From positions 96,001 through 160,000 of IMG/VR virus record IMGVR_UViG_3300037245_001077: DNA of 64,000 nt. The stretch is one strand, 5' to 3'. Numbering within the stretch: the first letter of the stretch is position 1; the number at the start of each line of letters is the position of its first letter. A program made the translations under genes and the position numbers. The notes below the pieces were generated by a model, which saw nothing but the letters and a program-made list of their open reading frames with translations, had not been told where the DNA came from and did not search any database. The DNA is from a virus. Shown here in pieces: positions 6,814 through 15,076 of this stretch.

Positions 6814-7137
6814 ATGACGATTAGAAATATTGATGTTGATACAAACTATGGGGATCTTGTTCAAGGGACCATAGCTGAAATCACAGGGTTCTTTTTCGAA
6901 ATGGACCCTCTGACAAAAGATTCTGTGCTTAAGATTAACTGGAGCGTGTATACTACTCTTACTGATGCTGTAGCGGGGTCTACCGCAGTACGGCTGCAAA
7001 TGCAAGAGCACGTTGGGAAACCAGGAGACCCAGAGTTCCCTATGACTCAGATTGAATTTGACAAACTACGAAATTGGTTGTATGACCAAATTCTTACTGA
7101 CCCAGAATACGCTGGTGGAACAAAGCATCTTGACTAA
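6814..7137 (+). CDS. hypothetical protein, possibly fibre assembly
   Basis: ORF with RBS at the end of the fibre cluster; function inferred from position only. Confidence 0.5.
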   Translation: MTIRNIDVDTNYGDLVQGTIAEITGFFFEMDPLTKDSVLKINWSVYTTLTDAVAGSTAVRLQMQEHVGKPGDPEFPMTQIEFDKLRNWLYDQILTDPEYAGGTKHLD

Positions 7138-7181
7138 TTTCCATTTTTCTAGTAATGTACTAATCCTTAGGAGGATAGACA

Positions 7182-7607
7182 ATGTCTCACACGAAGATCA
7201 AAGATCCAAAGAAAACTGAATCGGTCCCGGCACCTCCGGGGAATGTCCCTATGCCCACACTAGGTACTTCGAAAGAAGACCTTATTGCTGAGTATAAGAA
7301 GTTAGACGCTTTGCTAACTACCGTGAATCTGAACATCAAAATAGAGAATGAGAAGGCTGTTGCCGCTCAACAGCAGGTTGAAGGCTACCGTAACCAAGGG
7401 CTTCAGGTGGTTGGACAGGCCAATGTTATTGGTCGTATGTTGAATGGGATGGGCATTGATGCCCGTACTTTGAAGGCCGAAACCGGTCCAAACGAGCCGA
7501 ATTTGGCTCCTTTTTCTGTCCCTGAATTGGAAAATGAGGCCGAAGTCCCTGAACCTAAAGAGTTTACCCCTGTTTCGGGGATCAGAAACCGTTTTGCCGG
7601 TCGTTAG
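7182..7607 (+). CDS. hypothetical coiled-coil protein
   Basis: AGGAGG RBS; central heptad-like segment. Confidence 0.55.
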   Translation: MSHTKIKDPKKTESVPAPPGNVPMPTLGTSKEDLIAEYKKLDALLTTVNLNIKIENEKAVAAQQQVEGYRNQGLQVVGQANVIGRMLNGMGIDARTLKAETGPNEPNLAPFSVPELENEAEVPEPKEFTPVSGIRNRFAGR

Positions 7608-7688
7608 TACCTTCCTCGCTTTATTAGATGTGCGGGCGGTTTAGCCGCTGACAACTAAAAAAGCCCTGGATAAGAACCTAGGAGGTAT

Positions 7689-8150
7689 ATGATGGGTAGC
7701 GAGTTTGATTACACGTTTGAAGAAAGAGACCGGGATGTTAACGCGGGTCTCTACCAGAAATTTTACATTGAAACACCTATTGGTGACATGGAGTTCACTA
7801 TTGGTGCAGAGGAAACTGAAGTTATTGAGGTTCAGGCCCAAATGGTGGATCCTGCGGGTGACCCCATGGGGGTGGAGTATGTTCTCAACTTCCAATGCAC
7901 GTCTGATGCGACAGGGGAAACTCCGGCTGCACCATCAGGTATTACGATTGCCGCAACAACTGGAACCATTCTTGGAAATTATCCTGGTTATGCGGCTAAC
8001 GCATCGTTCCAGGTTATCACAGACGAAACTGGTCTAGCGGTGTTCACCTTTACCGATGCTTCTACAGGTACTCTGACTATGTACCTTGCTTGCGCCCTTC
8101 CGAATGGTGCATTCGTGGTTAGTGATGCCATCACTTTTGAGAACCCTTAA
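7689..8150 (+). CDS. acidic beta-rich structural protein, possible capsid decoration
   Basis: AGGAGGT RBS; flanked by a TTTATT motif and its own terminator; beta-strand pattern. Confidence 0.5.
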   Translation: MMGSEFDYTFEERDRDVNAGLYQKFYIETPIGDMEFTIGAEETEVIEVQAQMVDPAGDPMGVEYVLNFQCTSDATGETPAAPSGITIAATTGTILGNYPGYAANASFQVITDETGLAVFTFTDASTGTLTMYLACALPNGAFVVSDAITFENP

Positions 8151-8174
8151 TCCTTCTGTATAGGATGAACGCAC

Positions 8175-8205
8175 ATGGGGACGGATTGCCGTCCCCATTT
8201 GTTTA
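8175..8205 (+). terminator. Rho-independent terminator
   Basis: ATGGGGACGG-ATTG-CCGTCCCCAT perfect 10-bp stem followed by TTGTTT. Confidence 0.85.
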
Positions 8206-8244
8206 TTGACTGGAAGAGTTAACGGGTAAGACGATGGAGGTGTT

Positions 8245-8706
8245 ATGGACCCGAGTTTGATACAAACAGGCTTTGGGCTAGCAGTAGTTGTGCTTGTCCT
8301 TGAGCGTGTATACGCTATTATAAAGATTACTCTCGACAGCAGGGGAAGTAGTAAAACGTCTAATGGTAATGCCGAAGTTGCACGTACCCTGTTGGAGATT
8401 ATTCAGGAAATGCAGCATCAAATTGGTGATCTTCATGAGTGGCATAAGAAGGAAGACAGTGATGGCCGTAAGATTTGGTACGGGCATAGTGGGGTTGATA
8501 AAGCCCTAGAGCATCTTGCCACCAGCCATCTAGCACAAACAAAACTATTGGAGCATTTGGTAAGATCTTCTGAGGTTCAGGGAACTTCTATAGATGATAT
8601 ACACCGTACCCTAGCAGATTTGTATTCGAATATTTCTAGCTATAGGGAGACAATATGTCCATTTCGGGAATCTACAAAACAGTCAAAGCCAAGGAATCAA
8701 AGTTGA
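8245..8706 (+). CDS. single-TM membrane protein, possibly holin-like
   Basis: GGAGG RBS; N-terminal hydrophobic helix GFGLAVVVLVLERVYAII followed by coiled coil. Confidence 0.4.
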   Translation: MDPSLIQTGFGLAVVVLVLERVYAIIKITLDSRGSSKTSNGNAEVARTLLEIIQEMQHQIGDLHEWHKKEDSDGRKIWYGHSGVDKALEHLATSHLAQTKLLEHLVRSSEVQGTSIDDIHRTLADLYSNISSYRETICPFRESTKQSKPRNQS

Positions 8707-8817
8707 ATATTTTAAGCTCCTTTTCGAGTTAAACCCTGAGTTACTGGACACTAGCCGCCTGCGCAATTTGTGTGAAAAAATTTGCGCATTAAAAAAAGAA
8801 TTACGCGAATATAAGTG

Positions 8818-8846
8818 TTGACAAACAAACAACCTACGAGTATACT
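8818..8846 (+). promoter_or_regulatory. host sigma70-type promoter
   Basis: TTGACA (8818-8823), 17-nt spacer, TATACT (8841-8846), A-rich upstream region. Confidence 0.85.
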
Positions 8847-8865
8847 CAAACAGGTTGGAGGGTGA

Positions 8866-9633
8866 ATGTCATCAGGATGGTTTGCAGATTTGGGTTGGTG
8901 GGATCAACATGCGGCTTATGCCGCCTTCGATTCTTACAGATCCGATCCTACCTTAGACCAGTTCGATAATGCTATTACCCTTTCCCTCCCCATTATCCGC
9001 GTAGTTTATTCCACTCAAAAATTCAAAGTATCTTATGCAGGAGATGAAGATGATCTTATCTCCCATGCTGCGTTAACAATCACTAAAGCGTTACCAAAGA
9101 TGATTGAAAAACCTGTAGAAAAGCTTGATAATGACAAGAAGTATATGCGTTATTTGTTCACATGTGTCATCAATGCCTTTTATAGAGAGTACGATATCCT
9201 TCATGGTAAGCAGAATAAGCTCACAAGAAAAATTCTTGAAGAACACGAACCCGAAGAAACATACGCCGAAGCACGTAACGTGAAGGCCCTGGAAGCCAGT
9301 CTCACCCTTAAACGCATCCCCCGGCAGCTATTAACATTTGCTATGGAATGTGTCCGGTTTGAGGATGGCTCCAGAAAAGTGTGTAAGTACATCCTAGAAC
9401 AAATGATTGATGGTCGTGAAATTGCTAAGTCGGTCCTCCAGCTTATGGGTTGCAAGGACCGACATTTCTTTATCCACTATTGTGAGAGTATCTTGCTTCA
9501 GGCATTTCTTCTTCTTCGTAAGAGGAAGCCTTTGGTTGGAGGAACAACCTTTGAGGGGCAAGTCTCTCATGAAGACTCTGAGAGTTCTTTTGACCTTGGG
9601 TACTTCATGGATGAAGGTTACATGGGTGCATAG
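8866..9633 (+). CDS. phage sigma-factor-like protein (sigma70 region 2; gp55-like late sigma candidate)
   Basis: DEDDLISHAALTITKAL...KYMRYLFTCVINAFYREY resembles the region 2 pattern of T4 gp55-type sigma factors; region 4 degenerate. Confidence 0.6.
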   Translation: MSSGWFADLGWWDQHAAYAAFDSYRSDPTLDQFDNAITLSLPIIRVVYSTQKFKVSYAGDEDDLISHAALTITKALPKMIEKPVEKLDNDKKYMRYLFTCVINAFYREYDILHGKQNKLTRKILEEHEPEETYAEARNVKALEASLTLKRIPRQLLTFAMECVRFEDGSRKVCKYILEQMIDGREIAKSVLQLMGCKDRHFFIHYCESILLQAFLLLRKRKPLVGGTTFEGQVSHEDSESSFDLGYFMDEGYMGA

Positions 9634-9645
9634 ATGTTGAGTTAT

Positions 9646-9775
9646 AGTGCCCCGAATAAGGACATTGTGTAACTGGTGCTCTGAAACTTGTAATACACTC
9701 GGGATACACCGGGGAACATTAAACCAAGAACGTTGAGAACCACTACATGATGCGAGCCTGTTTGGGGCACTTTTT
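9646..9775 (+). ncRNA. putative structured RNA (long irregular rod hairpin) ending in a U-tract
   Basis: Nested helices found by hand: 9646-58/9759-71, 9663-71/9744-52, 9674-81/9735-42, 9687-90/9725-28, 9691-94/9718-21, 9698-702/9709-13; five G-U pairs. Confidence 0.6.
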
Positions 9776-9785
9776 AAGGTGCTAA

Positions 9786-10037
9786 ATGGACAACCCTAAT
9801 ATACTTCCTCCCATTTTCGGGGAGCTTATATCTTTAGCTGATAAAGTAGAGCAAATAGATGGAAAGGTTATCGAGGCGTATTGTTTGAGCCTTGATGACG
9901 AGGAATCTTTTATGCCTGAACTTGTTGGTATTATCGGTCCTATGGCGTTCCAGATGCTAGTATGCTACTATGGTGGTCAGTCAATGCGGATTCCTTGCCC
10001 AGAGGATATTTTGGCTAAGCTGAAGGAGAATTCATGA
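9786..10037 (+). CDS. Mor/C-family transcription activator-like protein (dimerisation part only)
   Basis: LVGIIGPMAFQMLVCYYGGQSMRIP matches the Mor motif L..IG......L...FGG..(Y)IP; no HTH follows. Confidence 0.6.
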   Translation: MDNPNILPPIFGELISLADKVEQIDGKVIEAYCLSLDDEESFMPELVGIIGPMAFQMLVCYYGGQSMRIPCPEDILAKLKENS

Positions 10038-10561
10038 GGCAAGACGGTATTGATATTGTTCACGAATTATCGGGAGAGTTACTAGAAGCGGTGATGACCG
10101 GGGGCAAAGTCAGTGCCGAATTAATTGGACTTGCCGAAAACGTTATCCATGCACATCAGGTGTATGTGCAATTACTCTACGTTGGAATGGTTGTAGGTCA
10201 AATTACTGAGCTAGCCAATTTCCTTGACGCACTAGACAACCTAGTAGCTGACGTAGACAGAGAAGATCTTGCAGAAGCAACTACTGCGGAGAAGATCCGG
10301 GGTGTTACCGCCTTCAACCAAGCAATCAAAACCAAAGTCGAAATCATCTCTAATATGATGGCGTCGAAGGACGCTATTGGTATGTTGACTTCTTCGTTGA
10401 AGGAAACCTTCGGAGATTCTGAAACTCTTCTGGAAGAGGGTGGAGCGGATAGCAACATGCTGAAGAAGCTTAAGGACATGCCTCCTGAGGCACGCCAACG
10501 AATCTTGGGTTCTGCTGTGGCTAAATTACGTGAATCAATGACTGGAGCTGAAGATGAATGA
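10034..10561 (+). CDS. helical hypothetical protein, terminase small subunit candidate
   Basis: AAGGAG RBS with ATGA overlap; all-alpha pattern; upstream of the large terminase. Confidence 0.35.
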   Translation: MRQDGIDIVHELSGELLEAVMTGGKVSAELIGLAENVIHAHQVYVQLLYVGMVVGQITELANFLDALDNLVADVDREDLAEATTAEKIRGVTAFNQAIKTKVEIISNMMASKDAIGMLTSSLKETFGDSETLLEEGGADSNMLKKLKDMPPEARQRILGSAVAKLRESMTGAEDE

Positions 10562-10907
10562 CGACGAGCTGATTAAAAAAAAGGCTAATCGGATACGGTA
10601 TGTAGGATTGACGGGTACTATCCACACAATCGTTAAAAACAGAAAATATGGAGATGCTGTTCGTAAGACCGTTGAAATCCTAAGGGTGTTATACCCTGAA
10701 GGAATTCGCCCTGACCAGTATTCAGATCTTTTGCTGCTGGTACGGGTTCAGGATAAGATGGTGCGGATTGCTTCGTACACTCCAGAGCGTCGTAAGAAAG
10801 ACGATGAGAGTCCTTGGGCAGATATTCGTGGTTACGGGACTTTAGGTGAAGAGAAAGATCTCGATCCTAATGAGGAGGGGATTCCTCCAGGGGAGTACCA
10901 TCTCTAA
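10554..10907 (+). CDS. DUF1599-like (nucleotide-modification-associated) protein
   Basis: KNRKYGDA...VRVQDKMVRI...ESPWADIRGYGTL motif series. Confidence 0.6.
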   Translation: MNDDELIKKKANRIRYVGLTGTIHTIVKNRKYGDAVRKTVEILRVLYPEGIRPDQYSDLLLLVRVQDKMVRIASYTPERRKKDDESPWADIRGYGTLGEEKDLDPNEEGIPPGEYHL

Positions 10908-11209
10908 TGTGGTCTACAATATTAGTAATGTTTCTTGTGCTATTTATAGTCAACACAGCCGTTACGTTTTTGCTATTTTGGTTGATGAGAAGGTTTTATG
11001 CTGCTCGGTTTGACCGTTTTGCTGTAATTGTGCAGGAGGCTATGGCTCTTCGAGATGCTCAGATAGCTAAGTTTGAAGCTCAGTTTGCAGATGCTTTAAT
11101 CAAAGACACTAAGATCATCGACGATTTACTAGACGATTACTCTGATATTGTGGATACCGAAATTAAGGAAGAGGGAGAAGCCGATGAACGTGAAGGAGAA
11201 GATAGCTAA
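10907..11209 (+). CDS. small membrane protein
   Basis: N-terminal hydrophobic run ILVMFLVLFIVNTAVTFLLFWL. Confidence 0.6.
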   Translation: MWSTILVMFLVLFIVNTAVTFLLFWLMRRFYAARFDRFAVIVQEAMALRDAQIAKFEAQFADALIKDTKIIDDLLDDYSDIVDTEIKEEGEADEREGEDS

Positions 11210-12275
11210 AGAGTTAGACGCTCTTGTCTTGCTTATTGCTGAAGCTTACAATGAGCTAGTTACAGGAGAAATCTCAGACCAAGAGTTCAAGGAAGCAGTA
11301 GACAAGGTTGCTCTGGCCAGGGATAAGACGGCGGATAACTTCTTAGTAATAATAAAAGAGGTCGTTCAAGACACTGTGGAATCTGTGGCTGTTGAAAATA
11401 CGGCAAACAAGGAAATGCAGTTAAGCAAACTCACTCCTTCTCCAGTTGTTTCTGACACACCCACCTACACTCGTGTTCCTGATCCAACTAAGCCTGTAAT
11501 GCTAGGAGAGTCTCAACCCCTTCCACGTACTACTGAAGATCCTGTAGATCTTTACGCGGGGAAACATCAGCTTCCTAATACGCCTCCTCCTGCTATGCCG
11601 ACTCCTGCTGTGCCGAATGCTCCTAGTCGTATTTTAGAAACTGCTAGTGTGGTGGACATAGACCCCGGTGAGGTAGATCACCCAACCATGGGGCTAACGC
11701 TTGAGCAAGAGAAACGTCAAGAAGCTGGGTTGCCTATTAAACCCTACCGTCCTACGATCCACATTGATTACCAAGGGTCACAGGAAGAGCTATTCAACAA
11801 GGATGCAGTATCACTTGCTCCTCCTACGCCTACCCTTCCTATCCCTGAACCGGCTCCCAAAGTAGAGCCTGCTCCTAAGGTTGAGCCAAAACCGCTTACG
11901 GTATCAGAGAAGGGTGCTCTGCACCAAATTCAGGATATAATGATTCCTTACAGGGAGGATGCCGATAAAACTCTCGCTACGCTGGCCTGTAGCGTCCTTA
12001 CGGTGATATCCGCAGCCTTGGCCCAAGAAGGAGACACAACGCGGTACAGCGGCATGGAGATGCTCTGGGGGGCACTGACGAGTGCTATCCAGAAGCTCCG
12101 TAAACTCGATAAAGAAGTCAAGTTCCAGGGGGATGTTCTGGAGCTTAGGGAAACGGTAGCAGCAGCAGTTGAGGACATCCTCACTACAGTAGCTACTTAC
12201 CCTTTACCGGACGAGGCTCCCACAGAGGAGCCGATAGTTTCCGAGGAAAAGATGGAGAAGAAGGATGGCGACTAA
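11184..12275 (+). CDS. hypothetical protein with Pro-rich central linker
   Basis: ATG 11184 after GAGGGAG preferred over 11148; EPAPKV repeat. Confidence 0.6.
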   Translation: MNVKEKIAKELDALVLLIAEAYNELVTGEISDQEFKEAVDKVALARDKTADNFLVIIKEVVQDTVESVAVENTANKEMQLSKLTPSPVVSDTPTYTRVPDPTKPVMLGESQPLPRTTEDPVDLYAGKHQLPNTPPPAMPTPAVPNAPSRILETASVVDIDPGEVDHPTMGLTLEQEKRQEAGLPIKPYRPTIHIDYQGSQEELFNKDAVSLAPPTPTLPIPEPAPKVEPAPKVEPKPLTVSEKGALHQIQDIMIPYREDADKTLATLACSVLTVISAALAQEGDTTRYSGMEMLWGALTSAIQKLRKLDKEVKFQGDVLELRETVAAAVEDILTTVATYPLPDEAPTEEPIVSEEKMEKKDGD

Positions 12276-12609
12276 AGAAGTTCTTTCAGCCTATCTTGTC
12301 TTGGTTAGAGTTAATTTACTGGGGGGAAAAGAGGTCGTAGCTGTTGATGCTTTCCGGGCAGAAGACGCGGACACAGCTTTGAACTACGCCCGGAACATGT
12401 TTCTTCGGAGTGGGGGAGAGGCAGTTGTTTATGGACAGGCTTCTTTTTTTAACGGGACCGTTGGTGCAGTAGAAGCTGAAGTTATCGGGATCTTGGATGA
12501 GGAGCATGAAATAAACGCTAAGTGGAGGACTTCCATGGATGTGTTCGATGAATTTCTTGAACGCGAGGAACTCAGGGACCAGCTAAAACAACGATATGAC
12601 GAGAAGTAA
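12265..12609 (+). CDS. hypothetical protein
   Basis: ORF overlapping both neighbours in operon fashion. Confidence 0.55.
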   Translation: MATKEVLSAYLVLVRVNLLGGKEVVAVDAFRAEDADTALNYARNMFLRSGGEAVVYGQASFFNGTVGAVEAEVIGILDEEHEINAKWRTSMDVFDEFLEREELRDQLKQRYDEK

Positions 12610-14674
12610 GACTGATATTTCGAGGCTCTTACCCACAGTTAAATACGAAGATTTAACTGAAGTTGACAGTGCGATGGTTAAAGAGCTATTAGAATACCTA
12701 GAAGCTACAGGAGACTCTGGGGTATTAGAGGATATCTTTGCGCTCGATTATGATACTACGCCTGTTACTCCTTACGAATTTCTGACCTCTAGACACTATA
12801 TGGGTCCGTTTACTGATGCGTTGTATCCTAAATGGCGTGAAGAGCTATTCTATGTCCTTGACCCTAAACACCAAATCAATGAATGGATCATTTATGGGTC
12901 AATTGGAACAGGGAAGACCTCAGCCGCTTGTGTTGCTCAGCTTTACAAGTTGTACTGGTTAACGTGCATGAAGTCTCCTCAGCGGATCTTTGGGTTGGCT
13001 GAGCACTTCCCCGTGTACTTTGCCTTCTTTTCTATTACTAAGGGTAAGGCAGAGGACGCAATCAACGCGAAGTTCCAGGGCATGATGAACCTGAGTCCTT
13101 ACTTCCGTGAACGGCTCCCCAAGAACCCTAGGAAGGTATTCCTTCAGGGCGCAGCAAACCTTTTCGGTGCGGGGTACAAAGAGCACCCTAAGAAAGATGA
13201 TCTTTTTGAACTTGTGTTACCTCACAACCTTCACCTACTCTTTGGTTCCCAAACCCAGCACGCTCTTTCACTCGATGTGTTCTCGGCTACTTTGGATGAG
13301 ATGAACTTCCGTGGTAAGAAGTCTGTTAGTGAAGAAGAGGATGAGAATAGTGCCCAGAAGCTCTACCATCAGGTGCGTACTCGTATTGAATCCCGGTTCA
13401 AGAACGCAGGTTATAACCCCGGATTAGTTATCAATATCTCTTCTGCCAGGTCTTCTGATTCTTTTGTGGAACAACGGATTCAAGAGGTTCGGCAGAACAA
13501 TATTTCCAACGTACATGTCTCGGATTTTGCTCTATGGGATGTTAAGCCGGGGCGGTATGGTTCTAAAACCTTTAAGATTTTCGTTAGTTCTGGTTTCCGT
13601 TCTTCTCGTATTTTAGAAGAGGATGAGGTAGTCCTTGATCTTCGTGAAGGCGAACAAATTATTGATGTACCAGAGTCTTTCCGGTCTTCATTTGAATCTG
13701 GGTTGGACCCGGCTATTCGGGATATTGCGGGTGTGCCTACCGCAGCGATCAACAAGTTGTTCAAACGTAGAGAAATTATCTTGGAGGCCAATGGGAAGTA
13801 TGTCAATCCTATCCAACCTGAAACCCTTGAGATTGGGCTTCAGAGTGGATTAGAGGTTTCGGACTTCTTTGATGTTGATTCAGTTAGTCGATACGACAAC
13901 ATGCAACGCTACCTACTACATTACCCACGTGCGGGTAGGTTCGTACACGTAGACTTGGCCCGGAATGGAGATTGTGCAGGTATAACGGGGCTATGTATCC
14001 CATTCTACTACTACAAGAACCTCCCTCATACAGATGATAACCGTGAAAAAGTCACACTAAAATTACCTTTCGTTTTCGTGGATTTCCATTGTCGGATTAA
14101 AGCTCCTAAGCTGGATGAAATTGCTTTTGAGAAAGTGCGACAATTTGTAGTTTGGCTTCGAGATAACATGAATTATTCAATTGTCCGGGTGTCTTATGAC
14201 TCCTGGCAATCTGTTCATTCAATGCAGCTCTTGAAAGAAAATGGGTTCGAGGTAGAGACTATTTCGGTGGATAGGACTGATGAGCCGTACATGGAACTGC
14301 TTAGTGCCTTTGTGGAAAAGCGTATTATGAAGCCCCCCTTCTCTTTTGTTGATAAGGAGCTGAGGGATTTAGAGCACGATCTTTCTGCGGCCAAGGGTTC
14401 GGTAGACCACCCTCGTAACAGTTCAAAGGATGTTTCGGATTCATTAGCTGGGGCATATGCTAATGCCCTAGAGTGGATTCACAAACACGGCTTTGGGGCA
14501 ATTGGGGCATACTTAATTCAAGAGGAAGTACTCCCCACTATTTTCCTAAAAAGCCCTAAGGAAATCAGGGTGGCAAGACTTTCTAAGGAGATGGGTTACG
14601 ATGAACCAGTGTTCTTGGAAAGTGGATACGAAGGACACTTCCAAAGGACGACACGCCTTGCTTCAAGGGGATAG
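12596..14674 (+). CDS. terL: terminase large subunit
   Basis: Walker A GSIGTGKT, Walker B ATLDEMN, nuclease motifs HVDLA, YDSWQS and VDHP..SSKDVSDSLAG. Confidence 0.92.
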   Translation: MTRSKTDISRLLPTVKYEDLTEVDSAMVKELLEYLEATGDSGVLEDIFALDYDTTPVTPYEFLTSRHYMGPFTDALYPKWREELFYVLDPKHQINEWIIYGSIGTGKTSAACVAQLYKLYWLTCMKSPQRIFGLAEHFPVYFAFFSITKGKAEDAINAKFQGMMNLSPYFRERLPKNPRKVFLQGAANLFGAGYKEHPKKDDLFELVLPHNLHLLFGSQTQHALSLDVFSATLDEMNFRGKKSVSEEEDENSAQKLYHQVRTRIESRFKNAGYNPGLVINISSARSSDSFVEQRIQEVRQNNISNVHVSDFALWDVKPGRYGSKTFKIFVSSGFRSSRILEEDEVVLDLREGEQIIDVPESFRSSFESGLDPAIRDIAGVPTAAINKLFKRREIILEANGKYVNPIQPETLEIGLQSGLEVSDFFDVDSVSRYDNMQRYLLHYPRAGRFVHVDLARNGDCAGITGLCIPFYYYKNLPHTDDNREKVTLKLPFVFVDFHCRIKAPKLDEIAFEKVRQFVVWLRDNMNYSIVRVSYDSWQSVHSMQLLKENGFEVETISVDRTDEPYMELLSAFVEKRIMKPPFSFVDKELRDLEHDLSAAKGSVDHPRNSSKDVSDSLAGAYANALEWIHKHGFGAIGAYLIQEEVLPTIFLKSPKEIRVARLSKEMGYDEPVFLESGYEGHFQRTTRLASRG

Positions 14675-14722
14675 GCGTAATCCTGCTTTATTACAGTGAC
14701 TTGACAAGTCGGAGGACTAGCT

Positions 14723-15076
14723 ATGAGCTTTCGTGAAAAAGTAGACGAACATATCGAAGAGACATTGATGGAAGGCGTTCTTCCGGACGTAGACGACGTT
14801 CTGGAGATAGAAGTGCCTAACCAGAAATCGGGACCACAGGCGAGTGGTGATGGAGGCGGGCCAAAGAGTGCTCGGGCTAGAGAAGCCACCTTCACTGACC
14901 ATACTGCACCCCCGAATTTTGGTGGAGCTAGCCGGGATAAGAAGTTCCCGTGCCCGCCTTTCAGTAATGCCAACAGAAGCATTCCACCTGCGAAATTCGG
15001 TGGTGCTGCCAAGATCAAAGAAGAGGCTATTCAAGCCGTTCTTGCTGACTTGGAAGCTATGCAGGATGCCGAATAA
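14723..15076 (+). CDS. hypothetical head/core protein with acidic leader
   Basis: GGAGG RBS; MSFREKVDEHIEETLME leader; PPNFGGA/PPAKFGGA duplication. Confidence 0.55.
   Translation: MSFREKVDEHIEETLMEGVLPDVDDVLEIEVPNQKSGPQASGDGGGPKSARAREATFTDHTAPPNFGGASRDKKFPCPPFSNANRSIPPAKFGGAAKIKEEAIQAVLADLEAMQDAE

Follow-up and report, generated by a model that had tools for sequence, protein, structure and literature searches.

A sigma-like gene, a conserved rod-shaped RNA and a Mor/C-like half-protein precede the packaging genes of an uncultured marine-sediment phage

A three-part locus before the packaging genes

We analysed a 64,000-nt stretch of viral DNA (hereafter the window), which comprises bases 96,001 to 160,000 of the 176,533-base IMG/VR record IMGVR_UViG_3300037245_001077 (CheckV completeness 81%), and examined a locus that lies immediately before its packaging genes. 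At this locus a host-type promoter, P_A, is followed by an open reading frame (ORF) for what is very probably a divergent sigma70-family factor (ORF A), by an intergenic rod-shaped RNA that is kept by covariation (the rod), and by a small acidic protein resembling the N-terminal half of the Mor and C activators of phage Mu (ORF B). All coordinates are collected in Table 1. Our tentative reading, put forward with reserve, is that the locus serves as the regulatory entry module of the packaging and late genes.

Nearly all genes of the window lie on the + strand. The nearest DNA matches to the stretch are marine-sediment metagenomes, and its source is an uncultured 176-kb marine-sediment phage belonging to a group without a cultured member. 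Searches of the region, of ORF A and of two distant family members against 50,697 cultured-phage records (blastn and tblastn) gave no match, and a scan of 185,579 species genomes found no ORF A relative. Related loci were collected from viral and metagenome contigs: 22 loci (16 distinct) besides the window reach far enough to show an ORF B homologue, and in 22 out of 22 this homologue directly follows that of ORF A. Distant members of the sigma family yielded no viral loci; the synteny result covers close relatives. The DNA runs X3-X5 cover small shares of the stretch only, and X6 consists of two contigs.

The initial annotation, which was made from the sequence alone, had grouped a sigma-like gene, a structured non-coding element and a Mor-like ORF into one candidate late switch whose parts should travel together. 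They do co-occur in relatives, with the exception of one distant clade that carries a promoter in the place of the rod. The position that it assigned to the locus, just before the packaging genes, holds as well, with the large terminase gene (terL) closing the block that starts at ORF B.

The rod is a conserved RNA

The intergenic region 9634-9785 folds as a rod that ends in a run of U residues at 9771-9775. On the + strand its 136-nt core has a minimum free energy of -48.0 kcal/mol (z -5.2 against dinucleotide shuffles), compared with -37.4 kcal/mol (z -2.8) on the - strand, so that the + strand fold is better by 10.6 kcal/mol. Orthologues from the window and 15 related loci reduce to 13 distinct sequences. 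All 12 copies that were folded individually take the same shape (z -2.9 to -6.3), and RNAalifold predicts 32 pairs from the alignment, 28 of them with compensatory changes. With the structure fixed, 92.7% of the cells are paired, as against 31-47% when the partners are slid by 1-3 columns; 29 of the 32 pairs change on both sides, and none of 500 shuffles reaches any of the observed measures. Among the 411 cells, G-U occurs 48 times and A-C only 6 times, and therefore selection acts on the + strand RNA. We have little doubt that the rod is a functional RNA, and the structured non-coding element of the initial annotation is thereby borne out by covariation in the 13 orthologues.

The closing helix at the base of the rod is GC-rich and 15 bp long. 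Above it come an asymmetric internal loop, a helix of 8 bp and a 3-bp CUC/GAG helix that hardly varies; the tip is a terminal region of about 60 nt, in which a 5-bp hairpin is followed by a conserved G(G/C)(C/A)AACA. In all 13 copies the closing helix (13-15 bp) is followed by a tract of 4-6 U residues, with ORF B starting 0-23 nt beyond. A covariance model built on the alignment detects the rod once in the 176.5-kb record and once in each related locus that bears it, always in the same place. No Rfam family, 6S included, was matched in the interval 8000-11000 at E<=10, where only chance-level rows appeared; in outline the consensus is a stem that carries a large terminal region, and the 6S families themselves are very divergent, so that a functional analogue may go unmatched. 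The loop motifs have no meaningful recurrence elsewhere in the genome and hence do not represent a general promoter motif. Readings of the rod as a pRNA-like, Y-RNA-like or tRNA-like element or as a ribozyme found no support by eye or via Rfam. A catalogue of about 8,500 structured RNAs from IMG/VR was published in 2023 (PMC10690425), and the rod might already stand in it anonymously.

One contig of a marine-sediment metatranscriptome library (run X6), 94% identical to the window, covers 9568-9790; it begins within the 3' end of ORF A, takes in the rod completely and extends 14 nt beyond the U-run, into the first codons of ORF B. It is weak evidence for co-transcription of ORF A, rod and ORF B with some read-through.

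A distant clade lacks the rod. It comprises 4 distinct loci (L009:2829-2868, L021, L022 and L025), whose ORF A is about 50% identical to that of the window. In this clade the stop codon of ORF A leads straight into TTGACA-17-TAGTAT, the ATG of ORF B lies 6-9 nt past the -10 box, and ORF B has no Shine-Dalgarno sequence; this arrangement predicts an ORF B mRNA that is leaderless or nearly so (3-nt leader). Thirteen distinct loci carry the rod and no promoter before ORF B, whereas the 4 distinct loci of the distant clade carry the promoter and no rod; the rod and the promoter are therefore alternatives at one spot. The 5' edge of the rod is marked by close relatives in runs X2 and X3, in which a 234-nt insertion falls exactly between 9633 and 9647, that is, between the ORF A stop and the first base of the rod; the rod therefore travels with ORF B. 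The inserted gene codes for about 75 aa (..KGTEGAF..RAG...YA....KKRANFA..) and belongs to no Pfam family; it is found in many relatives (e.g., L001:6770-6997, L003 and L007:6794-7015) and not in the window.

ORF A is a two-domain sigma-like protein

ORF A is made up of a sigma2 domain (residues ~11-113), a basic C-terminal domain that resembles a helix-turn-helix (HTH; ~134-222), and an acidic, aromatic tail (223-255). Searched alone against Pfam and PHROGs it gave nothing significant and fell below every Pfam sigma model. Its homologues form 58 close metagenome clusters (45-94% identity), and a profile search of 1.84 billion representatives gathered 71 proteins of the family, mostly of 220-270 aa. 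Pfam Sigma70_r2 (PF04542) was found in 4 of 36 distant family members (best E 6.1e-5). Against PDB sequences the profile of the close family had no match; only that of the wider family reached sigma factors, namely WhiG (3.2e-6), sigmaK (4.7e-5), FliA (2.9e-4) and sigmaH (9.3e-4), and all 15 of its rows were sigma factors. By eye, the invariant block GDEDDLISHAALTITKALPKM...KYMRYLFTCV.NAFYRE matches regions 2.1-2.4.

Structural comparison points the same way. An AlphaFold2 model from 25 sequences has a mean predicted local distance difference test (pLDDT) score of 79.8 and two well-predicted helical domains. In an exhaustive VIA-align search its top match is T4 gp55 (7d7d_F; Z 10.9, root-mean-square deviation 2.1 A over 96 residues, model residues 11-113), and almost all of the remaining rows with Z >=6.5 are sigma2 domains or whole sigma factors. 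SigmaS (Z 9.3) and sigma32 (Z 9.1) align over both domains (residues 1-225). With Foldseek, sigma factors head the list from the PDB library, and among the rows of the viral structure library that bear a name, most are phage proteins labelled SigF, RpoE, SigK or FliA. The C-terminal domain (pI 9.6), when searched alone, reaches region 4 of sigmaH at Z 5.1 and HTH domains of TetR and KorA at Z 5-5.8; it is probably sigma4-like.

We therefore hold with high confidence that ORF A is a sigma70-family factor. The sigma-region-2-like character proposed in the initial annotation is upheld by the sigma2 fold (Z 10.9 to gp55) and by the family profile (3e-6). Its comparison with gp55 stands for the sigma2 domain, whose nearest structure gp55 is, and needs revision beyond it, since ORF A is a two-domain factor with an added basic HTH-like domain and not a gp55-type single-domain protein. 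ORF A is the sole sigma-like gene of the record. A search of the record for a T7-type RNA polymerase gave no match, and it is uninformative because the control search matched nothing either.

The last 33 residues (223-255; window 9532-9630) are acidic, aromatic and disordered, and contain ..SFDLGYFMDEGY... The tail pattern xFDLxxF(M/L/V) is kept in close relatives of ORF A and recalls clamp- or partner-binding tails. A clamp-binding role for this tail (..FDLGYFM..) was considered and dropped; the beta-clamp family PF00712 was unmatched in the 81%-complete record.

A candidate promoter motif accompanies the sigma gene. GC-TTTATT-(A/G)(G/A)(G/A)TG recurs in + strand intergenic DNA between 75 and 173 kb of the genome, where its core CTTTATT has 10 copies on the + strand against about 1 expected from composition, and 1 in the opposite orientation. 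Its position is kept at homologous gaps in the relatives, including those of the distant clade, both before the homologue of ORF 7689 and after terL, and no conserved -35 element lies upstream of it. From sequence conservation we infer that GC-TTTATT is a candidate promoter for the phage sigma, and tentatively assign it to ORF A. Binding of core RNA polymerase and promoter-specific initiation by ORF A are predictions for which the co-conserved motif provides the only indirect support.

ORF B is a stand-alone protein resembling the Mor/C N-terminal half

ORF B is strongly acidic (83 aa, pI 4.05). All 11 aligned orthologues match phrog_836, annotated 'late transcriptional activator' (best E 1.4e-4), the match of the window copy spanning profile positions 17-52 of 133 only. 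In hhalign, residues 56-81 align with residues 63-88 of Mu C (E 1.9e-4, probability 47%), and the comparison with Mor gives E 0.074. The Pfam Mor family (PF08765) did not reach its threshold (E 0.1 in 2 of 11 orthologues). The structural neighbours of ORF B in the Atlas are Mor-family clusters (TM ~0.54).

The protein ends 13 residues past GGxxxxIP, where Mor and C run on into their HTH. Its relatives fall into 22 clusters of 71-88 aa, which end 10-20 residues past the IP motif and lack the Mor/C HTH throughout; no Mor/C HTH domain was found in the ORF directly after ORF B either. On these sequence comparisons, ORF B is a conserved stand-alone acidic protein, probably a relative of the N-terminal half of Mor/C without the HTH, and not a decayed fragment. 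In Mor and C this half holds the dimerisation helices and the GG..YIP strand. The Mor-like assignment of the initial annotation thus agrees with matches that are weak and consistent, whereas its description of the ORF as a fragment has to be given up. ORF B is unlikely to bind DNA or RNA unaided.

The promoter of ORF A

P_A consists of TTGACA (8818-8823), a 17-nt spacer and TATACT (8841-8846). With a score of 11/12 it is the top promoter-like site in 7000-15000. Because the scan of this interval is overall at chance level (12 sites vs 11 expected), the weight of the promoter rests on conservation: 19 of 21 related loci have TTGACA-17/18-TAnnnT at a distance of 18-25 nt upstream of their ORF A homologue, with differing spacer sequences. 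The host-type promoter that had been annotated as feeding the sigma-like gene is therefore retained. Such sites are frequent on the + strand of the genome from about 20 to 105 kb, and P_A is the final one ahead of about 68 kb of + strand structural genes, bar one pattern match at genome position 114228.

The -10 box of P_A is enclosed by an inverted repeat, CAACCT...AGGTTG, whose 3' arm abuts the Shine-Dalgarno sequence of ORF A (GGAGGG, 8857-8862). A comparable hairpin is predicted in most of 15 related loci (L001-L025), although the sequences differ: its loop contains or adjoins the -10 box, and its 3' arm reaches the Shine-Dalgarno sequence or comes close to it. Transcripts initiated at P_A would lack the 5' arm and stay translatable, whereas in read-through transcripts from upstream the hairpin would mask the ribosome site of ORF A. 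The hairpin of T4 gene e is a precedent for the masking of a ribosome site in read-through transcripts. Alternatively, the inverted repeat could be a repressor operator. Upstream of P_A (8760-8788) there is also an imperfect inverted repeat, GCGCAATTTG...AATTTGCGC, followed by a run of A, which is kept only in the closest relatives (L001, L010 and L011).

How the locus may work

In the mechanism that we propose, host RNA polymerase with sigma70 would start at P_A, leading to synthesis of the phage sigma, which would then redirect host core polymerase to GC-TTTATT-type sites that, like T4 late promoters, have no conserved -35 element. The rod would be a conditional gate, in which the 15-bp closing helix and the U-run stop or attenuate transcripts coming from P_A and from further upstream, so that sigma synthesis is uncoupled from ORF B and the packaging operon. 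The sequence-conserved loops would be the site at which a protein, a nuclease or the polymerase chooses between stopping and reading through or cleaving, and a factor recognising them would set the level of read-through. Because it is acidic and has no DNA-binding domain, ORF B would work through protein contacts, as a cofactor of sigma or polymerase and not as a DNA-binding activator of the Mor type.

That the rod works as a terminator-type gate is a possibility that we favour tentatively. Its GC-rich stem with an immediate U-tract, a terminator feature, is present in 13 of 13 copies. No strong sigma70-type site and no CTTTATT lies between 8846 and 14686 in the window, and transcription of the genes from ORF B to terL must therefore pass the rod. 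An unconditional strong terminator is thereby excluded, and a conditional terminator or a processing site is indicated. The other terminators of the genome are ordinary short hairpins; the conserved insert of about 100 nt in the rod must therefore serve a further purpose.

Several findings weigh against this scheme. The rod does not have the compact short-loop hairpin of a terminator, as the closing helix encloses about 100 nt of conserved structure; with its arms about 110 nt apart it is atypical of an intrinsic terminator, and it escapes a simple consensus terminator scan. Alternatively, the U-run might serve ORF B as an AU-rich translation signal; about half of the relatives' ORF B genes have no Shine-Dalgarno sequence. 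On the RNA side there is one low-depth contig, which comes from a relative and from a library possibly containing DNA. The GC-TTTATT motif is tied to ORF A by co-conservation only, and some of its copies double as the U-rich tails of hairpin terminators. Finally, the similarity of ORF B to Mor/C is local (26-36 residues, with the 47% hhalign probability given above), and its AlphaFold2 monomer model is poor (pLDDT 57) and inadequate for a fold search; a Mor-like intertwined dimer would explain the poor monomer model.

The main rival to a terminator-type gate is nuclease processing, which we consider unlikely. The rod would then be an RNA processing or stability element: a double-strand-specific nuclease cuts the lower helices, the 3' hairpin protects the sigma mRNA, and the leader of ORF B is freed or trimmed. 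T7 R1.1-type RNase III sites and the RNase III hairpin of the lambda N leader are models for such an element. Consistent with this, the 15-bp and 8-bp helices stack to a duplex of >20 bp around the asymmetric loop, the 3' side of which keeps YG/CA-YGNW, and the RNA-library contig continues through the U-run. The ATG of ORF B lies 0-23 nt from the stem, often without a Shine-Dalgarno sequence, and a cut at the base of the rod would give an mRNA equivalent to the leaderless or 3-nt-leader ORF B mRNA of the rod-less clade. However, there is one rod in 176.5 kb, whereas T7-type sites recur between genes, and an RNase III site would need neither the apical hairpin and AACA motif, both conserved, nor the invariant U-run.

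A riboregulator that binds RNA polymerase or sigma is a rather improbable explanation. It could act in cis, giving terminator resistance to the long late operon as HK022 put and the Bacillus EAR RNA do, or in trans, as a released 3'-untranslated-region-derived RNA for which 6S RNA is the model. The sequence-conserved loop nucleotides (the CUC/GAG helix, G(G/C)(C/A)AACA and G19:C126) suggest a specific ligand, the rod heads >50 kb of + strand genes among which hairpin terminators occur, and stable bacterial small RNAs usually end in a stem with a U-tail. But no Rfam family was matched, including 6S, and a long stem with a large terminal region is unlike the 6S central bubble between two long helices. 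Moreover, no target is evident, the loop motifs are confined to this one place in the genome, and a whole clade manages without the rod. A wider scheme, in which the rod has polymerase, the acidic Mor-like protein or the new sigma as its partner and forms with them a three-part late switch, an RNA-dependent choice between termination and processive late transcription, is likewise improbable, and we know of no characterised phage with such a combination of RNA, sigma and Mor-like protein. Of the actions that had been suggested for the RNA, namely on RNA polymerase, on sigma or on read-through, its anatomy favours read-through control (or processing); no evidence of its binding to polymerase or sigma was found.

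It is more doubtful still that the rod is an unconditional insulating terminator, with the phage sigma starting the operon from ORF B to terL at the tail of the rod (CAC-TTTTTA-AGGTG) or inside it. According to the logic of the T4 gene e hairpin, late transcripts without the 5' arm cannot form the terminator, and P_A itself is apparently embedded in a hairpin in the same phage group. The tails in the window, L001, L010, L017, L018 and L007 resemble GC-TTTATT-AGGTG, including the downstream AGGTG. Yet 7 of the 13 tails are unlike the motif, and the TTTATT core, which is strict elsewhere, is never found in a tail. In several loci the ATG lies 0-4 nt past the U-run, leaving no room for a start site, and AAGGTG is also simply a Shine-Dalgarno sequence.

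That the inverted repeat acts as DNA, e.g. as a packaging site or origin beside the terminase genes, with the RNA fold being incidental, is very improbable: the rod does lie directly before the packaging block and 2.8 kb upstream of the large terminase gene, but given its G-U excess over A-C (48 vs 6) the complementary strand would pair far worse, as is also seen in its fold being less stable by 10.6 kcal/mol, and the internal loops and bulges are conserved asymmetrically.

Comparison with known late switches

The late switches of phages, such as gp55, gp33 and gp45 of T4, Mor and C of Mu, Q of lambda and RinA, have served as models of transcription control. Of these, the T4 late system (gp55, gp33 and the gp45 clamp) is the one to which the N-terminal domain of ORF A is structurally closest, by way of gp55. 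The two systems further share a small acidic partner gene adjoining the sigma gene, and a short, AT-rich promoter motif without a conserved -35 element. They differ in that ORF A has the extra basic HTH-like C-terminal domain (134-222) and itself matches no Pfam or PHROG family, ORF B has no similarity to gp33 as far as tested, and the late motif is TATAAATA in T4 and GC-TTTATT here. A clamp counterpart was unmatched by PF00712 (DNA polymerase III beta clamp N-terminal domain), a search that did not include gp45-type clamps.

With the group 3/4 sigma factors (WhiG/FliA, sigmaK, sigmaH and the extracytoplasmic function sigmas) and the phage sigmas that carry such annotations, ORF A shares family profile matches and the domain order of sigma2 followed by an HTH; unlike them, it falls below all Pfam sigma models, and its sigma4 assignment is weak (Z ~5). 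ORF B resembles Mu Mor/C (PF08765, PHROG 836) in its helix and ...GGxxxxIP... segment (LVCYYGGQSMRIPCPEDILAKLKE compared with Mu C 63-88) and in heading the late genes. But it stops at the start of the HTH in every relative, is strongly acidic, and lies below the Pfam threshold; without an HTH it falls outside the Mor/C family.

Structured leaders that decide read-through are known from the lambda pR'-tR' 6S transcript with Q, the nutL-N leader with its RNase III hairpin, and HK022 put. The rod likewise is a structured element between a constitutive promoter and a long operon, beside a small regulator gene. However, it has no sequence or Rfam similarity to these leaders, ORF B is acidic whereas N is arginine-rich, and no antiterminator was identified.

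Late activators of the RinA/ArpU/LtrC type are encoded directly upstream of terS, with a promoter between activator and terS (PMC3152322). The present locus has in common with them a specificity factor gene immediately before the packaging genes and a regulated entry point between the two. The place of the promoter, however, is held here by a structured RNA of 130 nt whose end resembles a terminator, and the proteins are unrelated as far as tested. By analogy, the module may work like the RinA loci (PMC3152322), where the gene of a late regulator immediately precedes the terminase genes.

The locus contributes three elements: a sigma family of 58 close clusters (71 representatives in a library of 1.8 billion) that has so far turned up in uncultured phages only, a new, strongly covarying RNA motif at the single point where transcription must pass from a regulator gene into the packaging operon, and a stand-alone protein resembling one half of a Mor/C activator. 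Should the rod prove to be a regulated gate, it would amount to a portable, compact switch for termination or processing, and timing would be exerted at the RNA level in a phage group without a cultured member. If it is an elaborate terminator only, the locus would be an ordinary regulator-before-terminase arrangement built from new parts.

Neighbouring genes and features

Table 1. Features of the late-gene entry region, in window coordinates
Feature	Position	Strand	Basis
Host sigma70-type promoter P_A (TTGACA-17-TATACT), drives ORF A	8818..8846	+	score 11/12; position kept in relatives
Inverted repeat CAACCT...AGGTTG around the -10 box	8830..8857	+	comparable hairpins predicted in relatives
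ORF A, divergent factor very probably of the sigma70 family, 255 aa	8866..9633	+	AlphaFold2 model, structure alignment, family profile
Rod RNA	9646..9775	+	folding energy, covariation, covariance model
ORF B, 83-aa acidic protein like the Mor/C N-terminal half	9786..10037	+	phrog_836, hhalign, Atlas neighbours
ORF C, 175 aa	10034..10561	+	conserved in all loci; ATGA overlap with ORF B
ORF D, 117 aa	10554-10907		phrog_1485 match
Large terminase	12596..14674	+	tblastn 1e-65
GC-TTTATT-AGATGTG, copy of the candidate phage-specific promoter motif	7618..7632	+	enrichment and conserved position
Further copies of the GC-TTTATT motif	8202, 14685-14699, 23968, 33783, 41649		

Downstream of the rod, the ORFs from 9786 through 14674 overlap or abut, forming a tightly packed block from ORF B to terL. 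The tblastn match of the large terminase ORF is to annotated TerL proteins of Vibrio siphophages. For ORF C, a role as small terminase is no more than a lead, which comes from the Atlas feature T5_Terminase_small (0.88) and which PHROGs and PDB profile searches do not confirm. ORF D, also within the conserved block, matches phrog_1485, a family of unknown function, with an E-value of 3.2e-5.

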